Shown here: positions 1 through 58,847 of the stretch, in pieces
How the letters are laid out: every line of letters begins with the position of its first letter
How positions within the stretch are numbered: the stretch's first letter is position 1
Assembly: GCA_017415025.1 (NCBI GenBank)
Contig: JAFQJH010000009.1
Coordinates: 23,570 to 87,569 of the forward strand
Origin: Clostridia bacterium
GTDB lineage: Bacteria; Bacillota; Clostridia; Oscillospirales; Acutalibacteraceae
Reading direction: 5' to 3'
Length of the DNA stretch: 64,000 nt
Position numbers and translations under genes: made by a program
Notes under the pieces: model-generated
Database searches by the model: none
Seen by the model: only the letters and a program-made list of their open reading frames with translations
Told to the model about the DNA's origin: nothing

Positions 1-838
1 CTGTTTCGTTAAAGCGCTTTGTGAATTCGTTGAAGTAACCGAAGATTTCAGTACGGTCACGCCATGACGGCTGAACAGATGCGATTGTTACGTCATTCTG
101 AAGGAACTTACCCCAGGCATAAGCAAGTGAGGTTTTACCTGTACCTGAAATACCCTGAAGGATGATAAGACGAGTTGATGCAAACGCTGAAAGGAAAAGT
201 CTAATAACCTTGATTTCGTAGAAAAGACCGAGTCTTGAGCAAGCGAAGTTACGGAACATATCACAGATTTCGGGAAGTGTGATTTCGTTATCATACTCCG
301 GTGCAACATAGTTTTCAAGCTCAAGGTCAACCTGTGTACATTTGTAGAAACGGCTGTAATCGTCGGCTGTCTTGTCAACCTCACCGTCAGCCTTCTTCTC
401 GCCTTCCTCTGCTTCAGCATTCTCTGCAATATCAGCATAAGCGCTTTCGCCGGGCTTGAGACCGAGCTGTGAAACCTTCATAGCAAGGATTTTTTCCTTC
501 TCGTTTGAAAGCTTGATGATTTCGCGGTTAAGATTGCCGACCTCATTGAGGAGCTCTTCCTGGTCAACGAGTGTCTTGCGAACTCTGATATACTTTCTGA
601 TAAGAACAACTGCAAGAATAACTGCTGCCACGAGAACTGCAACTGTTGCAACTACTGCGAGGATCGCAAGAATCCAGTCAACTGCCGTAAAATCGCCCGA
701 CCAGGACTTGAAGATTGCAACATACTCGGGGATGTTGAAGATATTTGCGATACCGAGGCCGATACCCTTGAAAATACCCCAGACACCCTTTATGAAAAAC
801 TGATTTAAGAATTCTGCAATGAATTTTGTTACTGTCAT
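1..838 (-). CDS. Membrane-anchored AAA+ ATPase, McrB/AAA_5-like (N-terminal part; gene runs off the left edge)
   Basis: The minus-strand frame is open from ATG at 838 (AAGGGTGG 6 nt upstream) to position 1. It is missing from the ORF track because it is edge-truncated. My translation reads MTVTKFIAEF..., then a hydrophobic helix DWILAILAVVATVAVLVAAVILAVVLI and a coiled-coil-like stretch. This is followed by Walker A ILQGISGTGKTSLA and SVQPSWRDRTEIFGYF, the layout typical of McrB-type cores. Confidence 0.6.
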   Translation of the reverse strand, partial: MTVTKFIAEFLNQFFIKGVWGIFKGIGLGIANIFNIPEYVAIFKSWSGDFTAVDWILAILAVVATVAVLVAAVILAVVLIRKYIRVRKTLVDQEELLNEVGNLNREIIKLSNEKEKILAMKVSQLGLKPGESAYADIAENAEAEEGEKKADGEVDKTADDYSRFYKCTQVDLELENYVAPEYDNEITLPEICDMFRNFACSRLGLFYEIKVIRLFLSAFASTRLIILQGISGTGKTSLAYAWGKFLQNDVTIASVQPSWRDRTEIFGYFNEFTKRFNET

Positions 839-923
839 TTTCAGCCACCCTTTAAAACTTAATAACTATTTGCCGTAGGCTTATATATTTAATAGGTTCA
901 GTGAATGTATTTGTGTGTAAAAA

Positions 924-1637
924 TTATTCCTTGGGTCCGTCGCCTGATTCAGCCTGTTTAGCAGCCTGTTCAGCGAGATATTCTTCAATAGCGCGGCGCT
1001 TTGTCTCTTCGTCAATGTCTGCAGCTTTGGCTTCCATAAACATTGCGATGAGCTTGTAAATCTGCCAGATGAAGAACAGAGCAAGAGGAATAATGATGCA
1101 GATCATAAATCCTGTTCTTGACTGGAGGAAGTTGAGAGCCGAACCGAAGTTCGCAATCATAAGACCTTCCTTATAGTTTCCGTTTTCATCAATACCCGAG
1201 TTTACCTGCTTTGCGATAACCTCATCGGGAAGAACGAGGGTGTTATCCTCTGCCGTAATACCGTCACCCTTTGTTGCAAAGGCCTTGATGGTCTTATCCT
1301 CGTTGTATTCGATATCAATGATACGGTGAGTATTGAATCCGCGGACGCTTCTGCCCTCTGCATCGGTAAGAACCGTTGAATAGGTGATGACGTCACCCTT
1401 CTGAAGCTCGTTGATATTTTTTACTTCCTTTGTGATGATAAGGTCACCGGTTTTGAAGGTCGGTCTCATTGAATCAGACTGAATTGAAAACGGTGTGTAA
1501 CCGAAGATGTTACCGATGCCTGTATCTGAATTCTTTGATGTGAAGGTCATAACCGTGATTACAATCGCGATTACGAGAATCAACACCAACAGTATGTCGG
1601 AAACGACTCCGACTATCTTTTTGCCCTTTTCTTTCAT
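924..1637 (-). CDS. sipW: Signal peptidase I, SipW/archaeal-ER type (S26B)
   Basis: 237 aa. N-terminal TM helix, catalytic-Ser motif SDSMRPTFKTGDLI, His motif NTHRIID, and a C-terminal TM helix with a charged tail. It lies directly downstream of genes with TasA-style signal peptides. Confidence 0.8.
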   Translation of the reverse strand: MKEKGKKIVGVVSDILLVLILVIAIVITVMTFTSKNSDTGIGNIFGYTPFSIQSDSMRPTFKTGDLIITKEVKNINELQKGDVITYSTVLTDAEGRSVRGFNTHRIIDIEYNEDKTIKAFATKGDGITAEDNTLVLPDEVIAKQVNSGIDENGNYKEGLMIANFGSALNFLQSRTGFMICIIIPLALFFIWQIYKLIAMFMEAKAADIDEETKRRAIEEYLAEQAAKQAESGDGPKE

Positions 1638-1830
1638 TTTTTACACTCACTCCTGATTATATTTGACTTAAAGGTCATTTCCGGACATCTGACGATGCCC
1701 AAAAATCGCCCTTAAGGCTTTGAAAACGCTTCGGGGGTATATCGGGTGACACGTTTGAGCGTCACCCGTTAAATGTGACGGAGTTCCGCAGAGCAGAGCC
1801 CTGCTCTGCGGAGAAAAGCTTTTTTCAATA

Positions 1831-2763
1831 TTAAAGATCCTGTGCGAGCTGAAGAACGAGATTGAAGCTGATTGTTGCTCCAGCTACATCGTTTGCGCAG
1901 TCAACGTCGTTACCTTCCATCCAGAGATATACACGGATACGGTTAACGCCTACTGCTGCGTTGAAGTATACGTCTTCTACTGCAGAATCCTGATCAACTT
2001 TTGTTGCATAGGTAGCACCAGCCAAATGCGTTGCTTCCGTATAATTCTTTCCAGCCGGTCTAGCTGCATTAGTTGATGTAGCAGACATATAGTTATCCGG
2101 AACCGTTTCACCTGCAGCAAAACCAGATTCAGCAGTATGATTGTACGAATCAAATTCATACATAACCGCTCTGTTATCCAAATAGTTTTCAGGAAGTACA
2201 GCTTGAATTGTTCCAGCATCCGATCTTTCTGCAACAGTTCCACAATTAACAAGTGCAAGACGCATTGCCGTCAAAACATCCGGATTCGTTTCACATTCTA
2301 CTGTACTGTTACCCCAATATACCTTCTGGGATTCTCCGACCTTAACAAAAAGGTCAAATGCCAGCACGCCGCTTCCCTGCTCTGAGTCAACCTTCTTTAT
2401 AGCAAGAACATCAGCTGCATCGATTGAACCCTCATAGAAAGTAGGCAAAGCATTTCTAATCTGGAAACGTGATGACGACGGTCTAAGGCTATCAGGAATA
2501 TTATTGATATTTCCTTCGTATGCATTCCAACGAGCTGTTGATTCGCCCTTAAGGTCTGCAAGCGTAAGTGTTGTTGTGAAAGCGCTTGTATTAGCAGAAA
2601 TCTGAACACCGTCAGGTGAAGTGATGTTAAGATCCATACTTTCAACTTCAACTCTTGTTGCCATTGAGAACCATGCAAATGTTGATGATGTCAACACGAT
2701 TGCAGAAACGAGAAGCATCGCAATGGCAGAAATGAACGTACGTTTTCTTAATGTGTTTTTCAT
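1831..2763 (-). CDS. Secreted/fibre-subunit-like protein, paralog 1 (SipW-cognate-like signal peptide)
   Basis: ORF 1831..2901 trimmed to ATG 2763, which has GGAGGT 11 nt upstream in the same context as the paralog start at 3949. N-terminus MKNTLRKRTFISAIAMLLVSAIVLTSSTFAWFSM. Shares QISAN, PSSSRF, MRxxxVNCGTV and the C-terminal IRVYLWMEGNDVDC motif with 2981..3949. Confidence 0.75.
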   Translation of the reverse strand: MKNTLRKRTFISAIAMLLVSAIVLTSSTFAWFSMATRVEVESMDLNITSPDGVQISANTSAFTTTLTLADLKGESTARWNAYEGNINNIPDSLRPSSSRFQIRNALPTFYEGSIDAADVLAIKKVDSEQGSGVLAFDLFVKVGESQKVYWGNSTVECETNPDVLTAMRLALVNCGTVAERSDAGTIQAVLPENYLDNRAVMYEFDSYNHTAESGFAAGETVPDNYMSATSTNAARPAGKNYTEATHLAGATYATKVDQDSAVEDVYFNAAVGVNRIRVYLWMEGNDVDCANDVAGATISFNLVLQLAQDL

Positions 2764-2980
2764 TTGTTTCTTTACCTCCATAAAGATTTTTTGCTTGGCG
2801 ACCGTTAACTCGCCGCCATGCGGGGTTTCTGAATTATGTTCCGTGCACCGGGAGTAAATACGGTTTTCCGGTAACCCGGTTTGCAAGAATTGCATCTCCA
2901 AATTTCAGCTGAATATTACCTTTCAACCGGATACATCCCGGAGTCATTGAAACATTATTCAGAAGATAAGAAATTTGGAA

Positions 2981-3949
2981 TTATACCATTGAGAATACAA
3001 GGCTTGCAGAAATGAGCTGACTCTGGAGAGAGTCTGTGCAAGCTGCGTCCTGACCTTCCATCCAGATGTAAATTCTGATCTGGTTGACACCTGCTTTAAG
3101 AGTAAGTGTCTGGTCAAGAGCACCTGTTTCAACAGGACAATCGTAAGCATTAGCAACTGTAAGAGTTCCTGCTGCTGACGGAGGTACTGTATAAGCATCG
3201 TCTGCAAGAGTGCCGCTGATACCTGTGCCTGCGATAGGATTGGTATTACGTGCATCCTCGTTGGTAGCGAAAATGACTGCCTCAGAACCTGAAGTTGCTG
3301 CAGGGGGAGTCTGTCCCTTTGTAACTGTACCACAGTTGACAAAACCTACTCGCATAGCATTAGCTGCTTCAGCAATAGCTGTTGTTCCGTCGCTCTCGTC
3401 ATTTTTAACAGCGATAGCAGAGCTGCCGATCTTAACCTGAGTTGTAGCATCGGGTGAGCTTGCGCTGTAATCAATGAAAACGTCAAAAGCGTAGAAGCCT
3501 GCTCTTTTCGCACCGCTCGGAATCTCAGCATCGCCCTTACCGTAAACAGTTACACCGTCAGCGGAAGTTGCTGCGAGGCTTTCCATTGTCTTTGTTGCCT
3601 TATCAATACCGCCTGCGAAGAATGCAGGAAGACTGTTGAGGCTGAAGCGTGAGGATGAGGGGCTGATTTCAGCAGGGAAGAAGTTGAATTCTTCGCTGAC
3701 TGCCTGGAAGCCTGATGTTGAAGTACCGTTAAGGTCCTCAAAAGTAAGCTCATCCGTAAAAGTTGTGGCATTTGCAGAGATCTGAATACCTTCGCCCTGC
3801 TTAGTAACCTTAAGGTCAAGATTACTTGCCATTGCGCTCTTACCCAATGTGAACCAAGCAAAAGATGCTGTTGTAATTACGATAGCAGAAAGGAGTATCA
3901 TCGCAATTGCAGCAAAGAATGCGCGATTTTTCTGATTCTTTTTGAACAT
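2981..3949 (-). CDS. Secreted/fibre-subunit-like protein, paralog 2 (SipW-cognate-like signal peptide)
   Basis: 322 aa. N-terminus MFKKNQKNRAFFAAIAMILLSAIVITTASFAWFTLGKS. Clearly paralogous to 1831..2763. C-terminal motif IRIYIWMEGQDAAC. Confidence 0.75.
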   Translation of the reverse strand: MFKKNQKNRAFFAAIAMILLSAIVITTASFAWFTLGKSAMASNLDLKVTKQGEGIQISANATTFTDELTFEDLNGTSTSGFQAVSEEFNFFPAEISPSSSRFSLNSLPAFFAGGIDKATKTMESLAATSADGVTVYGKGDAEIPSGAKRAGFYAFDVFIDYSASSPDATTQVKIGSSAIAVKNDESDGTTAIAEAANAMRVGFVNCGTVTKGQTPPAATSGSEAVIFATNEDARNTNPIAGTGISGTLADDAYTVPPSAAGTLTVANAYDCPVETGALDQTLTLKAGVNQIRIYIWMEGQDAACTDSLQSQLISASLVFSMV

Positions 3950-4059
3950 TGTCTTTTTCCTTACCTCCTTATTAGATTTTATGTACGGGTTAATCGCAAC
4001 CCTCCATAATATATCTCAAATGTGTTGAGTTTTCCCTCGGGAAACAAGACGAACAGGTC

Positions 4060-4884
4060 TTACTGCTCAGCGGATGATCCGTCACCGTCATCCAGCTCAT
4101 AGCACCAGAAGCCCATAGACATCTTGATTTCGCCGTCGAGAATCTTGTTAACACATTCAGGATCCCAACCTTCGAGCCAAATTACAACCGTATACTTATC
4201 AACGTCGCCAACCGGGAAAAGCTTCTCTTCCTCTTCCATAACCTTTGTGCTGGAAACGAAGTTTTTGTCAACGGTGTACTGAATTACGCCTGCAGAGTTT
4301 TTGTTTTCCTCAAGCTGATCCGTCGTACCGTTTTTCGGTTTGGCGTAAATTGTAGGCTCGCCGTTCTTGTAAACCATAACACGGACTGCATCATCGGCAC
4401 CCAAAGCAACAGAATCAATAAGGATCTGTGAATTATAGCCGACGTCAACATTACCTGCATTCTTCACATAGAAGGTATATGCAAGGAACTCCTGACCGTT
4501 CGAACGGTTATGTGAGCCGTCGATCCGGTCAATATCGTCGGGAAGCCAGCTGAAAGTACAGTCGCCCATATTTTCACACTTTTCACCGGCGAGGAAACGT
4601 GAGGGATTTTCGAATCCCGGAGTTTCCGAAAGAGTAATGCCCATGTTATATGCGTCTTTATCCATTGTAACCGTAAAGTCACCTGCTTTATTTACGTAGG
4701 ATGAGCAAGCGAACATTATGGAAAGGAAAAGCAGAAGTAAAACAAGGATAATCACGAGGATTCGGATTAAAGCTTCTCTCTTCTTAACTTTTTTTGATTC
4801 GGTCTTAACGCCGTAGCGGTCCATCTGACCGTTCTGCTGCAAAGCGGCATCGTTCGGCGCCTGATCCTTTTTCTTTTTAGCCAA
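4060..4884 (-). CDS. Membrane-anchored divergent paralog 3 (possible anchor/accessory subunit)
   Basis: 274 aa with a TTG start preceded by AGGAGGAGGA. Lys-rich cytoplasmic N-terminus and one TM helix (LIRILVIILVLLLLFLSIMFA). The ectodomain aligns loosely with paralogs 1 and 2 and ends in VVIWLEGWDPEC followed by an acidic tail. Confidence 0.7.
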   Translation of the reverse strand: MAKKKKDQAPNDAALQQNGQMDRYGVKTESKKVKKREALIRILVIILVLLLLFLSIMFACSSYVNKAGDFTVTMDKDAYNMGITLSETPGFENPSRFLAGEKCENMGDCTFSWLPDDIDRIDGSHNRSNGQEFLAYTFYVKNAGNVDVGYNSQILIDSVALGADDAVRVMVYKNGEPTIYAKPKNGTTDQLEENKNSAGVIQYTVDKNFVSSTKVMEEEEKLFPVGDVDKYTVVIWLEGWDPECVNKILDGEIKMSMGFWCYELDDGDGSSAEQ

Positions 4885-4899
4885 GCGAATCCTCCTCCT

Positions 4900-5640
4900 T
4901 TAGCTGATTTGTTTATCCTTAACGAATTCTCCGAAGTACGGACCGCTGAAACGGTCAGCACCCATTTTATTTATTAAGTCAAATTCCTCTTTAGTCTCGA
5001 TTCCGTCAACGATAACCTGTGTATCAATTTTTTTGCAGAAATCAATGATACCCTGAACCGTGTTCTGTACCTTCTCGTTGTAGAGAATATCCTCGATCAT
5101 ACTCTTATGTATTCCGATGTAATCGACATCGTAGTGAGAAAGGTTTGAAAGTGACGTATATTCAAGACCGAGATCGTCAATCGAAATTCTGAAGCCGAGC
5201 TCACGAAGAGCGTTTATTGTTTCGATAACCCTGTCCTTCACCGCCTCAAGAATACTCTCTGTAATATTGAAGCAGAAGCTGTCGGGTGAAATATCGTACT
5301 TTTCAACAATCTTTTTTACCTGATTTACAAAGTTCTTTTTTGTAAGCGTTTTGACTGAAACCCAGATGATGACGCTGTTCATATCAACCTCGCGCTCGGC
5401 ACAGCGCTTGATTGCCTCGCACGCCTCTTCGACCGCCCAGAGATTAAGCTGAACAACCTGGTTTGATTTTTCGGCAACGGGAAGGAAAACCTTTTCGGGA
5501 ATAACACCCTGCACCCTGTCGTTGATTCTCATTGAAGTTTCGTAATCAATCGCCATATTAAGATGAATGTCAAAAACAGGTCTGTAAAAAAGTTCGATTG
5601 TTCTGATTCTTGAACCTGTATTCCTTTGATTTTCAGCCAT
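4900..5640 (-). CDS. Stand-alone EAL-domain protein (degenerate active site)
   Basis: 246 aa with EAL-family landmarks: YRPVF, YETSMRI (in place of EALxR), FLPVAEKSN, NITES, SIDDLG, VDGIETKEEF. Several metal and catalytic positions look substituted; see findings. Confidence 0.75.
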   Translation of the reverse strand: MAENQRNTGSRIRTIELFYRPVFDIHLNMAIDYETSMRINDRVQGVIPEKVFLPVAEKSNQVVQLNLWAVEEACEAIKRCAEREVDMNSVIIWVSVKTLTKKNFVNQVKKIVEKYDISPDSFCFNITESILEAVKDRVIETINALRELGFRISIDDLGLEYTSLSNLSHYDVDYIGIHKSMIEDILYNEKVQNTVQGIIDFCKKIDTQVIVDGIETKEEFDLINKMGADRFSGPYFGEFVKDKQIS

Positions 5641-5825
5641 AGTTACTCACTCCAACAAGTTAGTCAAAAAGTCGTTTGCTATATATATTATAAATGTATA
5701 CGTTTTTTTCTGCCTGATGATCTTTTATATGATTTTAGGCGCACCTATACTCATAGAGATACTAATATACATATAGTACTTTATCACAAATTACAATAAT
5801 AGTCAACAAAAAATTTGTTTTTGAT

Positions 5826-5862
5826 GAAAAAAAATCCCGCCAAAACTGACGGGATTTTTTTG
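5826..5862 (-). terminator. Intrinsic terminator after the oxidoreductase gene
   Basis: Hairpin AAAATCCCG/CGGGATTTT, followed by a T-run when read on the minus strand. Confidence 0.6.
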
Positions 5863-5869
5863 TTCATTT

Positions 5870-6844
5870 TTATTTGATTCTGCATTGGTTTTTAACTTCA
5901 TACATCATCTTGTTTACTTCAAAAATCATTTTGTTAATATAGAAATATTCTTTCTTATTTTTTTCAAAATCCGTGATGAATTTGTAAAAATTTTCTGCTT
6001 CGTAAGCCATAAGAATATGCTTGTCAACCTCGCCCGTAACCTCTTCGGTTCTGCCGTCGGAATAATGAATTTTTACGCCGGTTAATTTTGAAATTGATTC
6101 AATCGTAACCGTACCCTCATCACCGAAAATCTGCGAGCCGAGGTAATCCTGACCGATCTTTGAATATGTAAGCGTAATCTGCTTGTCGGGGTAATCAAGA
6201 ACCGCTGTTCCGTAGCCGTCCGCACCTGTTTTGATAAAGCCTGCGGAGGAAGAAATCTTTTCGGGAATACCGAAAAATTCGACTGCGGGATAATAGCAAT
6301 AAATACCTAAATCGCGTAAGCAACCCGTCTTCATTTCAGGGTTAAAAATATTCGGATTTTCGCCGTTTTTGAGTGCCTTATATTTTGAAGAAAGCTGAGA
6401 AAAATCAAAGTGTGCTGTGGTAATTTTTCCGATTTTTCCGAGTGCATTTTTAACCTTGTCTTTTAAAGGAGAATGCATCATCATTATCGCTTCGGTGTAA
6501 ATCAGATTTTTACTCTGCGCAAGAGAAAAAAGCTCTTCAAATTCGTCGGGAGTAATTGTAATCGGCTTTTCGCAAAGCACGTGCTTTCCGTGCTCAAGCA
6601 TCATTTTGCTCTGCTCATAATGAAGCAAATTCGGGCTTGCAATGTAGACCGCATCAATGTCACTTTTTGCGAGCTCTTCAAGGTCGGTATAAACCGTTTC
6701 GCAGCCGAATTTTTCGGCAAATTCCCTGCCCTTTTTATAGGTTCTTGAATACATCGCGGCAAAGCACATACCTTCAACCGTCTGCGCACCCTTTACAAAT
6801 TCCTCGGCAATCCAACCCGAGCCGATAACACCGTATTTAATCAT
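5870..6844 (-). CDS. Gfo/Idh/MocA-family NAD(P)-dependent oxidoreductase
   Basis: MIKYGVIGSGWIAEEF Rossmann N-terminus and EKP motif (LCEKPIT). Start moved to ATG 6844, which has GAGGAG 7 nt upstream. The gene is AT-rich. Confidence 0.8.
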   Translation of the reverse strand: MIKYGVIGSGWIAEEFVKGAQTVEGMCFAAMYSRTYKKGREFAEKFGCETVYTDLEELAKSDIDAVYIASPNLLHYEQSKMMLEHGKHVLCEKPITITPDEFEELFSLAQSKNLIYTEAIMMMHSPLKDKVKNALGKIGKITTAHFDFSQLSSKYKALKNGENPNIFNPEMKTGCLRDLGIYCYYPAVEFFGIPEKISSSAGFIKTGADGYGTAVLDYPDKQITLTYSKIGQDYLGSQIFGDEGTVTIESISKLTGVKIHYSDGRTEEVTGEVDKHILMAYEAENFYKFITDFEKNKKEYFYINKMIFEVNKMMYEVKNQCRIK

Positions 6845-6862: not shown

Positions 6863-7612
6863 TTATTTCTTTTTAATGCATTTTATAATCTGAAACACAC
6901 CTGCTGCAAGCATCAGTATCGGAACAAAAATCCAAAGACCAAAGGCTTGAAATGTTTTTATTAAAGAAAAGGTTTCCGTGAATTTTAGAACAGGAAATCC
7001 TGCACCGATTACCGTGAAAACTATGCCGATATACAATCCGAAAATATCTGTTTTAATTTTATCAAAAAGTCCCGTTGCCGACAAGCCGAAAAGCACAAAC
7101 GCACCTGCAACCAGAATAAAAAATACACCCGCAAAAATCATTATTTTTTCTGCTTTGATAATACCGAAAATCAATAATAATAAGCCTGCAAAAACTGCGG
7201 CAAAAACCAAGCCTGCGCTCGCAAATTTTATTAAATTAAATCTTGATTTTTCCTCTTTTTCTGCGTCACCTTTAAACAGCTTTCTTTTCAGAAAATAAAT
7301 TCCGATAAGCCAGAACGGTATTGAAAAAACGGTTAAAGAATAGTTTTTATCTCTTAGGGTTATGTAATCTGCAACAGCGAGGAAGCCGAACCAGAAAAGA
7401 AAAAATCCTGCTTTGAATAATTTATCAAACAGTGATGCAATTTTTTCTTTATTTAAAATTATTGCCAGACTTTTTCCCGCCATTGATAAGCTGCAGACTA
7501 AAAACGGAACAAAAATTATTTTCGGACTTGTTGTTTTTATCATAAAATAAATCAGCAAAGCCGTGATGAAAATTGACGAAATCAACCTGCCTGTAATACT
7601 GTTTATTCTCAT
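6863..7612 (-). CDS. Polytopic membrane protein, unknown function
   Basis: 249 aa with about 7 hydrophobic helices. AT-rich. No recognisable motif. Confidence 0.55.
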   Translation of the reverse strand: MRINSITGRLISSIFITALLIYFMIKTTSPKIIFVPFLVCSLSMAGKSLAIILNKEKIASLFDKLFKAGFFLFWFGFLAVADYITLRDKNYSLTVFSIPFWLIGIYFLKRKLFKGDAEKEEKSRFNLIKFASAGLVFAAVFAGLLLLIFGIIKAEKIMIFAGVFFILVAGAFVLFGLSATGLFDKIKTDIFGLYIGIVFTVIGAGFPVLKFTETFSLIKTFQAFGLWIFVPILMLAAGVFQIIKCIKKK

Positions 7613-7642
7613 ATTTTTTCTCTTTCCTTTTTAGAATGGTTT

Positions 7643-8263
7643 GATAAATTGGGAGTTTGTCGTGCAAAGTCTTTGACTTTGCAATGATATATCCGCAATG
7701 CGGATATGATGAATGATGTTCGTTTCGCGAATGATGTGTTTGCGCAGCAAACATTAAGGGGCTGCGCCGCGATTATAAACGGCGGCAGCTAGCCACCGCC
7801 CTACCGCGCGAGTTTCATTTGAGGCGGTAGGGGCAGATATCATCTGCCCGCGGATTTTGATGTAATTCTTCGGGAGCATACTATGCTCCCCTACTGACAC
7901 TATCTTATTAAAATGCGTAGGGCGTGTCTCAAGAGCCACGCCCTTAGTTGGTTTAAAAATCTTCGGCACGTCGGCAAGCGCCGTGCCCTACGAAAACAAA
8001 TTTTAATCTGCTCGATAAATTGGGATTTGTCGATATCTTTTCAAAATTGAAACAAGCCAAAGACAAGCAACCTTCTCTGAAAGGGAAGGTGCCCGACAGG
8101 GCGGATGGGTGGAGCGTCAGCGACCAAAAAGTTCTTTGATATATCTTGTTTCCCTCGTTGCTTCGCAACGAACCCCTCAGTCACGACTTTGTCGTGCCAG
8201 CTCCCCTTTCAGGGGCGCCATTGTTCTACTGACTTTTTATTTTTCCCCGACAAATTAAATTTT
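7643..8263 (+). repeat. Mosaic intergenic repeat, copy A (GTAG-headed palindromic units plus mini-hairpin string)
   Basis: Shares long near-identical blocks with 34705..35265 and 37742..38010, and in inverted orientation with 56738..57255. Contains five GTAG/CTAC-headed palindromes at 7781-7804, 7827-7849, 7872-7894, 7917-7943 and 7965-7991. Confidence 0.9.
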
Positions 8264-8278
8264 GCAAAGTTTTTTCTC

Positions 8279-9301
8279 TTACTTTCTGTATTCAGATACA
8301 GAAAATGCAACATTTTCATTATCTCTGTACTCTTTGCGCGATATAAGTTTCATTCCTAAGTTATTGCAAATTTCATCAAGATTATTCAAATCACTATACA
8401 TTCTGCAATCCTTAAGAATTTTCAATGTTTCTTTTTCTGTAAATCCAAAGGGTTCTAAAATTCTGTATTGTCTCATAAATGCATTGTTTCTTGAAATAAC
8501 AACAAATCTTCCGTTATCTGCCAGCACTCTCGACACTTCTTTTAAAGTTTCAATTATTTCTCTTGATTCATCCAAACCGCAAACGGTACAAATTGTTTTA
8601 AAAGATTTATCCTTAAAAGGCAAATACCAAAAATTTGCACATACGGGAATAATTTTTTTCTTTTGATATCTTCCAATACCAAAAGCATTTCCCAGACAAT
8701 CAAAGCCTATATCAACAGTATACAATTCACAATCTTTCGGCATATACAATGCAACCGAAGCCGTTCCTCCACCCGCACCTGTTGCCAATTCCAATATTCT
8801 ATCGGTTTGTTCTTTACAAACTAATTTACCAAAGTAACGATATCTGTCCCAAAGAGGACCTTCTCCTTTTATTTTTGTTATTGTTCTTTTCTTACCTATG
8901 CTCTTCTTTGAAAATTTTTTAAAATCCTTTATTTGATTTTTAGTTACATTTCCGCTTTTGTCTCCTGTAATCCAGATATCTGTTTCTTTTTGCTTATACG
9001 AATCAAAAGCCTTCAGAATATTCTCTTTTGTTCCGTGTATTTCATTTATGTATTTGATATAAATCTCGTTACGATCAGCAACATTATCACTTTCTATTTC
9101 TTCATAAATCTTTGTAATTATATTACTATGTTCCCAAAAAATAATTTCAATCAGCTCACGACTCCAATCAGGGTTTGTCTTTTCGGGAAGCAAAATCGGA
9201 ACTCCTTTAATTACGGAATAGCTTTCTTTGCCATCCGTTGAAACAAGTTTATTTTTATTTAAACTCAATTTCTTATGGCTTTGAGGTGCAACAAAAATCA
9301 T
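8279..9301 (-). CDS. Class I SAM-dependent methyltransferase with Trm112-like N-terminal segment
   Basis: 340 aa. Motif I ILELATGAGGGT and N-terminal VIKGVPILLP. Very AT-rich compared with the neighbouring core genes. Confidence 0.7.
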   Translation of the reverse strand: MIFVAPQSHKKLSLNKNKLVSTDGKESYSVIKGVPILLPEKTNPDWSRELIEIIFWEHSNIITKIYEEIESDNVADRNEIYIKYINEIHGTKENILKAFDSYKQKETDIWITGDKSGNVTKNQIKDFKKFSKKSIGKKRTITKIKGEGPLWDRYRYFGKLVCKEQTDRILELATGAGGGTASVALYMPKDCELYTVDIGFDCLGNAFGIGRYQKKKIIPVCANFWYLPFKDKSFKTICTVCGLDESREIIETLKEVSRVLADNGRFVVISRNNAFMRQYRILEPFGFTEKETLKILKDCRMYSDLNNLDEICNNLGMKLISRKEYRDNENVAFSVSEYRK

Positions 9302-10677: not shown

Positions 10678-10822
10678 GAAGCATTATTTCAGTCATGTGG
10701 TGTGTTGGTCCTGTGCGACGGGGTGCCACGAACCATGTCAGGCGGGGAACCGAGCAGCATTAAGAGGTTAACACCGTGCGACACAGTCCGGCCTGCGCAC
10801 CATATGACTGAGGTAATGCTTT
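10678..10822 (+). ncRNA. ffs: Signal recognition particle RNA (small/4.5S-like type)
   Basis: Long closing helix: GAAGCATTATTTCAGTCATGTGGTG pairs with CACCATATGACTGAGGTAATGCTT. Conserved domain IV-like core GTCAGGCGGGGAACCGAGCAGC. A T-run follows. Its position just upstream of dnaX matches the scr-dnaX arrangement in Bacillus. Confidence 0.75.
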
Positions 10823-30671: not shown

Positions 30672-30748
30672 GTCTTCGTAGCTCAGATGGATAGAGCGTT
30701 CGCCTCCTAAGCGAAAGGCCGTGGGTTCGACTCCCGCCGAGGACGCCA
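30672..30748 (+). tRNA. tRNA-Arg (anticodon CCT)
   Basis: Hand-folded cloverleaf. Acceptor GTCTTCG/CGAGGAC, anticodon stem TTCGC/GCGAA with loop CTCCTAA, T-arm GTGGGTTCGACTCCCGC, encoded CCA. Confidence 0.9.
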
Positions 30749-34552: not shown

Positions 34553-34639
34553 GCAGAAGTGGCGGAATCGGCAGACGCGCTAGATTCAGGTTCTAGTGAA
34601 TGCAAATTCGTGAGGGTTCAAGTCCCTTCTTCTGCACCA
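34553..34639 (+). tRNA. tRNA-Leu (anticodon CAG)
   Basis: Type II tRNA with a long variable arm. Anticodon stem CTAGA/TCTAG with loop TTCAGGT. T-arm GAGGGTTCAAGTCCCTT. Encoded CCA. Confidence 0.9.
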
Positions 34640-58685: not shown

Positions 58686-58762
58686 GGGCCATTAGCTCAG
58701 TTGGTTAGAGCAACCGGCTCATAACCGGTCGGTCCGGGGTTCGAGTCCCTGATGGCCCACCA
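58686..58762 (+). tRNA. tRNA with anticodon CAT, most similar to lysidine-type tRNA-Ile2 (elongator Met not excluded)
   Basis: Cloverleaf with anticodon loop CTCATAA and D-arm AGCTCAGTTGGTTAGAGC, as in Bacillus tRNA-Ile(CAU). G1-C72 is paired, so it is not an initiator. Confidence 0.85.
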
Positions 58763-58771
58763 ATTTAATAT

Positions 58772-58847
58772 AGGGGTATAGCTCAGTTGGTAGAGCAGCG
58801 GTCTCCAAAACCGCGTGCCGAGGGTTCGAGCCCTTCTGCCCCTGCCA
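58772..58847 (+). tRNA. tRNA-Trp (anticodon CCA)
   Basis: Acceptor AGGGGTA/TGCCCCT, anticodon stem GCGGT/ACCGC with loop CTCCAAA, T-arm GAGGGTTCGAGCCCTTC. Confidence 0.9.

Follow-up and report, generated by a model that had tools for sequence, protein, structure and literature searches.

A CoCoPALM-type locus of a Clostridia bacterium linking a membrane-anchored McrB-family GTPase to a SipW-like peptidase and candidate surface-polymer subunits

Two of the described systems closest to the genes considered here are taken first. In the TasA superfamily, which brings together TasA, AbpA, AbpX, Tafi, the threads, and CanA, the subunits share a jelly-roll core and donor-strand complementation, with an aromatic residue at position 2 of the donor strand, and the loci encode a TIGR02228 peptidase, minor subunits, tip proteins, anchors, and often enzymes of cyclic di-guanosine monophosphate (c-di-GMP) (TasA superfamily preprint, 2026). 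The paper on AbpX that summarizes these loci mentions an ATPase not once. The second, the CoCoPALM class, is named in one paragraph of Bell et al. (eLife 2024, PMC11090510), which defers its analysis to a later paper. As described in that paragraph, the class has an McrB-like GTPase of the NxD branch with an FtsB-like N-domain (a transmembrane segment plus a coiled coil), an adjacent DUF2357 homolog of McrC that usually carries a coiled coil, and genes of the signal peptidase family. The locus described here lies at the left end of a 64,000-nucleotide stretch (the window) of the Clostridia bacterium assembly GCA_017415025.1, contig JAFQJH010000009.1. Its six genes encode, from right to left, an EAL protein, three paralogs here called D, B, and C, a SipW-like signal peptidase, and an McrB-like GTPase (Table 1). 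Judged by sequence, this is a CoCoPALM-type system. It is read here, with a probability of roughly 0.58, as an envelope system that would have a surface polymer of B and C outside, an McrB/McrC-type motor inside, and the EAL protein as a sensor.

The GTPase was initially annotated as an McrB-like Walker A ATPase with a transmembrane helix and a coiled coil. The features hold: the fragment in the window has a conserved, amphipathic N-terminus, a transmembrane helix (residues ~55-82) followed by a basic stretch, a coiled coil (~85-125), an acidic linker, and the Walker A sequence GISGTGKTS. The basic stretch reads RKYIRVRK in the window and KKYVRVRK in a related locus, L001. The full-length ortholog from the latter (L001:13136-14701, 521 amino acids) matches Escherichia coli McrB (6hz4) over residues 208-419 with an E value of 1.9e-6 in phmmer, and the PADLOC candidate PDC-M26A with an E value of 9e-36. 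Walker A, Walker B (LDEMN), and the signature GT[IA]N[NK]DDS do not vary between Clostridia and Spirochaetales. Characterised members of the McrB family are GTPases, and the label is corrected to McrB-family GTPase. By these sequence features the protein is a membrane-anchored McrB-family AAA+ protein, the McrB homolog of CoCoPALM.

Its partner is encoded just outside the window (L001:14735-16897 in the related locus). This protein matches DUF2357 (PF09823, 41 bits against a cutoff of 23.3) and ends in a charged coiled coil of ~360 residues, 53-72% of them E, K, or R. Neither Pfam nor PADLOC identifies a nuclease domain in it, and it is a nuclease-less McrC homolog built on the McrC N-domain. 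In McrBC, the DUF2357 domain of McrC inserts into the McrB hexamer. The locus shares with McrBC the AAA+ fold, the Walker A and B motifs, the N-x-(x)-D signature, and a DUF2357-bearing partner. In contrast to McrBC, the GTPase has a membrane anchor and coiled coil at its N-terminus in place of a DNA-binding domain, the partner has its long E/K/R tail and no PD-(D/E)xK nuclease, and the genes stand among those for envelope proteins. With neither nuclease nor DNA-binding N-domain, the locus falls outside the McrBC restriction systems.

Two sets of loci were compared. The first consisted of 32 loci from Genome Taxonomy Database (GTDB) genomes, gathered from relatives of B, whose open reading frames (ORFs) were searched by BLAST with the window proteins. 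As a control for bias, 80 metagenome loci were fetched by the GTPase profile alone and their ORFs scored with hidden Markov models; components were counted on the 29 of these that have 5 kb or more of sequence to either side. The gene order oxidoreductase-EAL-D-B-C-SipW-GTPase, followed by the gene for a DUF2357 coiled-coil protein of ~720 amino acids, is kept in about 25 metagenome-assembled genomes (MAGs) of Clostridia, Acutalibacteraceae, and Ruminococcaceae, and rearranged versions occur in MAGs of Spirochaetales, Mollicutes, and Bacillales. The 29 GTPase-picked loci all contain the SipW-type peptidase, which adjoins the GTPase in 27, and all contain the DUF2357 coiled-coil protein; D is present in 28/29, B/C-like subunits in 26/29, the signal motif [ST][FY]AW[FY] in 25/29, and the EAL gene in 9/29. 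By these counts, the peptidase, the subunits, and the GTPase pair form the core, while EAL is a clade-specific accessory. The window genes and their off-window partners form one conserved module. A lack of co-conservation with a SipW-type peptidase, named at the outset as something that would speak against the system, was not seen, and the inclusion of the ATPase proved sound, as it is the most conserved component. In locus L026, identity to the window proteins is 81% for the GTPase, 59% for the flanking oxidoreductase, and 37-41% for the subunits, as one would expect if the machinery is conserved and the subunits are exposed.

That a SipW/subunit operon and an McrBC-like pair are simply unrelated neighbours is close to refuted by these data. 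Such a boundary could be marked by the 85 bp that separate the GTPase gene from that of the peptidase and by the strong hairpin that follows the gene for C, but the peptidase accompanies the GTPase in all 29 of the counted loci, and their association persists over four phylum-level lineages and despite changes in order, and genes for subunits with the FAWF signal end described below flank the GTPase pair on both sides.

Three of the four features stated for CoCoPALM are present. The GTPase has N-x-D followed by D in GT[IA]N[NK]DDS, in line with the published wording 'NxD usually followed by E or D' (Bell et al., 2024); placement in the NxD branch leans on that description in lieu of a tree, and a gap-free alignment also reads as NxxD. 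The adjacent coiled-coil McrC homolog and the signal peptidase (924-1637 in the window) recur in all 29 loci, as given above. In the N-domain of the GTPase, the transmembrane helix and the coiled coil are clear, and the likeness to FtsB/FtsL stays below threshold. The resemblance lies in the transmembrane and coiled-coil McrB-like GTPase, the coiled-coil DUF2357 partner, and the signal peptidase genes. Not contained in the paragraph that introduces the class (Bell et al., 2024) are the family of B, C, and D with its FAWF signal end and its anchored member, the degenerate EAL protein alongside, the giant secreted protein, and the occurrence of the system in Ruminococcus bromii.

The system was first described as uncharacterised. 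Its class has had a name since 2024, and no experimental study of it was found. Literature searches returned neither the later paper on CoCoPALM nor anything on PDC-M26, and a broader search, which also covered R. bromii and surface filaments, gave nothing relevant among the results listed. The supplementary text of Bell et al. (2024), in the part available, adds nothing further on CoCoPALM. A mention of 'McrB' in a paper on BsaA was dropped as a lead, being only an E. coli genotype.

Descent from McrBC raises the possibility of an anti-phage or conflict system in which the secreted proteins would serve as envelope effectors or sensors. The homology of the GTPase to McrB, its strong match to PDC-M26A, and the defence role predicted for the CoCoNuTs, the nearest relatives described so far, are what such a role would lead one to expect. 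The rest of the locus argues otherwise: neither a nuclease nor any other effector domain is present in the McrC homolog, and a PADLOC scan matched no system component other than the GTPase. The chromosomal synteny of the locus is fixed, and conservation of the GTPase exceeds that of a housekeeping gene next to it, unlike what is seen in patchy defence islands. The system is also nearly absent from viral contigs, with a single remote match in 2.9 M, on which grounds a phage origin was rejected; together with the fixed synteny, this indicates that the locus is neither mobile nor phage-borne. A defence function is given only a slight chance.

The subunits B and C are 31% identical to each other (E 3e-43). 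By BLASTP, D shares with them only a C-terminal motif, W[LMF]EGxDxxC, which is common to all three, but profile comparison with hhalign (A1 against A2) gives 89.9% probability and an E value of 1.7e-6 over 226 columns, which identifies D as a genuine distant paralog. D, first described as a divergent paralog with a transmembrane anchor, is borne out in both respects. The three proteins have no match in Pfam (E<=0.1), NCBIfam, or PADLOC and, to judge from their sequences, are one unannotated family; the initial statement that they could not be placed in a recognised family stands, and no well-characterised non-fibre family emerged that would account for them. The 100 homologs of B are all annotated as hypothetical and belong to no Pfam family, and the D family has 796 matches in 90% clusters and 1379 representatives at 50% identity (E<=1e-3).

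At their N-termini, B and C have a basic region and a hydrophobic helix of 22-24 residues that ends in SFAWFT in B and TFAWFS in C, as was noticed when the locus was first annotated. Over all fetched loci, the signal end is TFAWF 55 times, SFAWF 24, TYAWF 18, and SYAWF 5, and [ST][FY]AW[FY] is also found in the Spirochaetales, Mollicutes, and Bacillales MAGs. Recurrence of the same motif in the same context across lineages indicates that it is not a chance feature. Cleavage is predicted after the Ala of [ST][FY]A, which would satisfy the -3/-1 rule and leave mature proteins that start at WFTL in B (W32) and WFSM in C (W31). D has no such motif, so that only two of the 'three TasA-signal paralogs' of the initial annotation deserve the name. 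Instead, the transmembrane helix of D (residues 33-66) joins a basic tail, conserved and cytoplasmic, to an acidic beta-sandwich outside the cell, and in its AlphaFold2 (AF2) model the helix runs continuously into the sandwich, as in an uncleaved type of protein (mean predicted local distance difference test score, pLDDT, 80; predicted template-modelling score, pTM, 0.70). The AF2 model of B is likewise a beta-sandwich (pLDDT 85, pTM 0.82), in which residues 24-42, that is, the predicted cleavage site and the first ~12 mature residues, fall below a pLDDT of 50. Isoelectric points are ~4.2-4.3, with 4.2 for mature B, 4.3 for mature C, and the same range for the D ectodomain. Column conservation in the B family is highest at the N-terminus (0.72-0.80) and C-terminus (0.62-0.75) and lowest in the indel-rich middle (0.38-0.52).

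The peptidase scores 74 bits with TIGR02228 (cutoff 51.85), 25 bits with PF10502, and 94 bits with the SipW model NF046067, whose cutoff is 190. The initial label of a SipW/ER-type signal peptidase is right as to the ER type; with a score below the cutoff of the Bacillus SipW equivalog, the protein is SipW-like and not SipW. It has transmembrane segments near its N- and C-termini (4-37 and 170-201) and a charged cytoplasmic tail, and a phmmer search of PDB sequences returned nothing for it. The putative catalytic triad is S56 (SDSM), H104 (THRI), and D125 (KGDG), read from the sequence by the motifs of SipW. In a natural fusion protein, P0456, a Peptidase_S26 domain (43-181) precedes a D-like domain (197-361), a Rosetta-stone hint that supports a physical link between D-type domains and the signal peptidase. 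A second, shorter S26-type peptidase gene often lies 3' of the DUF2357 gene in other loci (L030:16816-17388, L032:15576-16262, and many metagenome loci), whereas the clade of the window has one peptidase only.

The EAL protein gives 170 bits with PF00563 and was aligned with the active EAL domains of MorA (4rni) and Bd1971 (6hq4). It keeps the Glu that belongs to the EAL motif as well as the Arg and the DD pair, but has W in place of the metal-binding Asn, N for the first Glu of ExTE, G for the catalytic Lys, D for the first Glu of EGVE, and S for the Gln of the QG motif; the roles of these residues are those established for RocR and TBD1265. Four catalytic residues are lacking, the residue set of an active phosphodiesterase (E, N, E, DD, K, E, Q) is incomplete, and the substitutions are kept in orthologs down to 53% identity. 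Loss of catalytic residues that is maintained in this way suggests that the protein is probably not a phosphodiesterase but a c-di-GMP receptor, a non-catalytic sensor of the FimX/LapD kind. Like FimX and LapD, it has an EAL fold with catalytic residues lost and is tied genetically to a candidate surface-structure or adhesin machine; unlike them, it stands alone, without GGDEF, PAS, or HAMP domains, and is found in about one-third of loci. Of the c-di-GMP-type component proposed at first, the stand-alone EAL domain remains, though as a degenerate and accessory one. Some loci have several EAL genes upstream of D, with four in L113, and in a Bacillales locus (L032:3604-7778) two canonical multidomain EAL proteins are encoded upstream in place of the single degenerate one. 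Such varied sets suggest a recurrent but variable c-di-GMP wiring.

The cluster reaches well past the left edge of the window. Downstream of the DUF2357 gene, a giant secreted protein is encoded (L115:13830-21062, 2410 amino acids; also L001:16898-20965), for which the 2410-residue form gave no Pfam family, repeats, LPXTG motif, or transmembrane segment. Next comes a further subunit gene (L115:21085-21557), whose product begins ...VAVSFAWFTNN, and FAWF subunit genes thereby enclose the motor genes together with the giant gene. The giant protein is probably a tip or a cargo and the further FAWF protein probably a minor subunit.

These parts suggest how the envelope system might work. B and C would be made as membrane-inserted precursors and cut by the SipW-type peptidase after [ST][FY]A, leaving mature proteins that start with W-F. 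The N-terminal segment freed in this way would act as a donor strand, as in the TasA superfamily, and link the acidic beta-sandwiches into a polymer on the cell surface, with D, by virtue of its transmembrane helix and basic cytoplasmic tail, as membrane base or nucleator. On the cytoplasmic side, the GTPase would form a hexamer whose pore is filled by the DUF2357 domain of the nuclease-less McrC homolog, as in McrBC. Through its own transmembrane segment and D, this motor would put the hydrolysis of nucleotide to use in assembling, anchoring, or releasing the polymer, and in the present clade the degenerate EAL protein would probably report c-di-GMP to it. Speaking for the scheme are the co-conservation of the genes, the McrB-like GTPase with its DUF2357 partner, a peptidase of the type encoded beside TasA-superfamily subunits, the signal end shared across phyla, the low-confidence mature start, conserved termini, and low isoelectric points of the subunits, the pilin matches of the D model, the S26-D fusion, the gradient of conservation, the fixed chromosomal setting, and the FAWF gene beside that of the giant protein.

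Comparison with the tapA-sipW-tasA operon of Bacillus subtilis speaks for part of this scheme. In both cases an ER-type peptidase is encoded in one operon with its known or candidate substrates, and a major subunit is combined with an accessory or anchor protein. The signal ends are also alike, with small residues at -3 and -1 and an aromatic residue plus Phe around the cut. Mature TasA starts at A28, which was verified in PDB entry 8aur, and the residues before A28 are T-W-A; the cut therefore lies between T-W-A and A-F in TasA and would lie between [ST]-[FY]-A and W-F here. The Bacillus operon differs in that it has TapA, of which there is no counterpart here, and in that it encodes no NTPase, McrC-like protein, or EAL protein, and the subunits of the present locus lack detectable homology to TasA or Peptidase_M73. 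The layout matches the locus template of the TasA superfamily more widely, with acidic beta-sandwich subunits, a TIGR02228 peptidase, and an aromatic residue that opens the predicted mature N-terminus, but the resemblance is weak and only structural. Indirect signs of donor-strand complementation, which is a prediction here, are the low-confidence start of mature B and the conserved termini of its family. The TasA-like fibre operon with a dedicated peptidase that the initial annotation proposed is accordingly kept in part: two paralogs of a cleavable type, an anchored paralog, and a peptidase are present, and the link of sequence to TasA is missing. We infer fibre formation by B and C from this analogy.

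Several results weigh against an envelope polymer of this kind. The profile searches against Peptidase_M73/TasA and TIGR04088 that had been suggested at the outset were all negative: B, C, and D do not match Peptidase_M73 (PF12389) in Pfam at E<=0.1, and TIGR04088 finds nothing at E<=10 in the N-termini of B, C, and five remote subunits, with the caveats that HMMER filters drop weak hits and that the presence of the model in the release is unconfirmed. A search of PDB sequences with profiles A1 and A3 at E<=10 did not find TasA or anything relevant, and hhalign of the subunit profiles against TasA gives a probability below 1%. Structure prediction, also suggested initially, was carried out on single chains with a mixed outcome. 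The B model has no significant Foldseek neighbour (none with E<1e-3) in the PDB or BFVD, while the D model lists AbpA (7ueg, rank 3, E 1.7e-3, probability 0.92, TM-scores 0.23/0.32), the Saci_0406 thread (7pnb, rank 13, E 7e-3, TM-scores 0.26/0.36), and the chaperone-usher pilin domains FimA and PapG. These pilin matches are weak (TM-scores 0.2-0.37) and lie among generic beta-sandwiches, and as evidence of homology of B, C, and D to the TasA superfamily they amount to a weak resemblance of the modelled D to donor-strand pilins. On the motor side, the likeness of the GTPase N-terminus to FtsB/FtsL is below threshold (FtsL_2 E 0.03-0.06, FtsL_Actino E 0.03), its descent from McrBC and its kinship with the CoCoNuTs as sister systems point to conflict systems, and, to our knowledge, the known donor-strand fibres of the TasA type polymerise without any NTPase.

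The same models leave some room for B, C, and D to build a surface structure other than a filament, such as a two-dimensional layer, a wall matrix, or a spore coat or appendage. The fold of B lacks a pilin neighbour, the best Foldseek matches of D are generic beta-sandwich modules, TasA itself was first described as spore-associated, and the sub-threshold likeness to FtsB/L could hint at a part in division or sporulation. Conserved termini around a variable middle, together with a disordered mature N-terminus, nevertheless fit subunits that polymerise through terminal contacts, and several paralogs accompanied by an anchored paralog and a TIGR02228 peptidase are the typical layout of TasA-superfamily filaments. 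A non-filamentous structure is accordingly judged rather improbable.

About equally doubtful is the proposal that the GTPase works as an inside-out regulator, with c-di-GMP and the state of the GTPase switching the SipW-type peptidase in the manner of LapD, LapG, and LapA, and with the regulated step being the release either of precursors tethered in the membrane or of the giant protein at the surface. Such control would make sense of a degenerate, receptor-like EAL domain, of a giant secreted protein in the cluster, of a peptidase that adjoins the GTPase in 27/29 loci, and of TasA-type fibres that, as far as we know, need no NTPase. The signal helices of the subunits, unusually long at 22-24 residues and highly conserved, would also suit precursors that are held until cleavage. 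On the other hand, the locus has neither a LapG-type protease nor the HAMP and periplasmic domains of LapD, and an EAL gene in only 9/29 loci implies that c-di-GMP control is not the core function.

The envelope system with a polymer outside and a motor inside can be taken one step further. In this stronger form, it would be a new class of pilus machinery, exapted from a restriction enzyme and widespread in gut Clostridia, R. bromii among them, in which the membrane-anchored McrB/McrC-derived GTPase, coupled to the transmembrane helix and basic tail of D, uses GTP hydrolysis to drive or gate the assembly, tensioning, or release of a donor-strand polymer built from a new branch of TasA-like subunits, with c-di-GMP input through the EAL protein. 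This proposal is tentative and on balance unlikely. Type IV pili and archaella offer a parallel to the locus, since in these too a cytoplasmic NTPase, which here would be hexameric like theirs, is tied to membrane precursors with a conserved helix and to a dedicated peptidase. The components differ, however: the NTPase is an McrB-type AAA+ protein here and PilB or FlaI there, cleavage is by an S26 peptidase after the helix here and by an aspartic prepilin peptidase before it there, and no PilC-like platform protein is encoded in the present locus.

An ORF check of the window recovered the six genes as originally mapped, all co-oriented on the minus strand and tightly packed, with 15 bp between those for EAL and D (Table 1). 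The start of C at 2763, also the one first chosen, is backed by a GGAGG sequence 10 nt upstream and was preferred to an alternative at 2781, as in L001. The AT-rich region upstream of the EAL gene is likely the promoter region of the operon. It contains one extended -10 promoter-like site (5806-5778), although the total of promoter-like sites does not exceed that of shuffled controls; the promoter and terminator scans of the locus gave counts no higher than these controls, and no c-di-GMP or other riboswitch was found in window positions 1-6200. The hairpin has a perfect stem directly 3' of the stop codon of C, with a folding free energy of -25.4 kcal/mol (z -4.46; 0/200 shuffles fold as well), and was missed by the terminator scan because it lacks a U-tract. 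It may be an attenuator or an element that stabilises the 3' end of the mRNA after the subunit genes, and may set the ratio of subunit to machinery expression.

Table 1. Features of the locus at the left end of the window (- is the minus strand; aa, amino acids).
Feature	Position	Strand	Basis
GTPase, N-terminal 279 aa of 521	1..838	-	translation; cut off at window edge
SipW-like ER/archaeal-type signal peptidase I, 237 aa	924..1637	-	TIGR02228, NF046067, PF10502
Hairpin, 12-bp, GC-rich	1785..1812	-	folding against shuffles
Subunit C, 310 aa	1831..2763	-	no Pfam or NCBIfam family
Subunit B, 322 aa	2981..3949	-	AF2 model; homologs hypothetical; no Pfam
D, 274 aa, membrane-anchored distant paralog of B and C	4060..4884	-	hhalign, AF2, Foldseek
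Stand-alone degenerate EAL protein, 246 aa	4900..5640	-	PF00563, residue alignments
AT-rich intergenic region upstream of EAL gene, GC 0.29	5641..5869	-	base composition

Identical database entries exist for D (MBQ3128319.1), B (MBQ3128318.1), and the peptidase (MBQ3128316.1), all from a Clostridia MAG and named 'hypothetical protein' or 'signal peptidase I'. Elsewhere in the window, a bacterial small signal recognition particle (SRP) RNA and four tRNA genes (10703-10800; 30672-30745; 34553-34636; 58686-58844) are consistent with an ordinary chromosomal region. A stretch of ~670 bp (7613-8278) between a membrane-protein gene (6863-7612) and a methyltransferase gene (8279-9301) holds only short, implausible ORFs and has no Rfam match.

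The loci nearest to that of the window were found in MAGs from the ruminant gut that bear the label Acutalibacteraceae or just Clostridia. Human gut metagenomes are rich in a clade with the same architecture and a GTPase 60% identical to that of the window. Through a subunit cluster (subunit WP_278868119.1), this clade maps to R. bromii, and its GTPase carries the annotation of a multispecies Ruminococcus/Oscillospiraceae protein. Among the members of the 90%-identity cluster to which the R. bromii GTPase belongs are proteins of 407 amino acids named argininosuccinate synthase, probably an artefact of clustering or naming. An R. bromii-type locus from a human gut metagenome (L056:6230-17122) holds the same system, with four FAWF-type subunits of 254-637 amino acids on the flanks of the motor genes and a DUF2357 protein of 848 amino acids in which a coiled coil of the heptad type and an additional globular part at the C-terminus take the place of the E/K/R tail. 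A sediment MAG labelled Mollicutes (L031) encodes the GTPase, a short DUF2357 protein, the peptidase, D, FAWF subunits, and also a Gly_rich_2 protein of more than 817 amino acids. If its host is truly wall-less, the role of the motor cannot be to cross peptidoglycan.

The locus adds to a class that has been named computationally and is to date without experimental study. The system is abundant, with at least 8000 clusters of the GTPase clade at 90% identity and more than 1300 representatives of the D family at 50% identity, and the proteins of its subunit family have no Pfam family and no annotation beyond 'hypothetical'. If the proposed envelope system is real, the motor of a restriction enzyme, McrBC, would have been repurposed for an extracellular protein polymer, which would contradict the picture of TasA-type donor-strand fibres as self-assembling without energy input. 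Its hosts are Clostridia of the rumen and hindgut and the cultured R. bromii, a keystone starch degrader of the human colon; a role in adhesion, aggregation, or biofilm formation would matter ecologically in these communities and would be testable in R. bromii.

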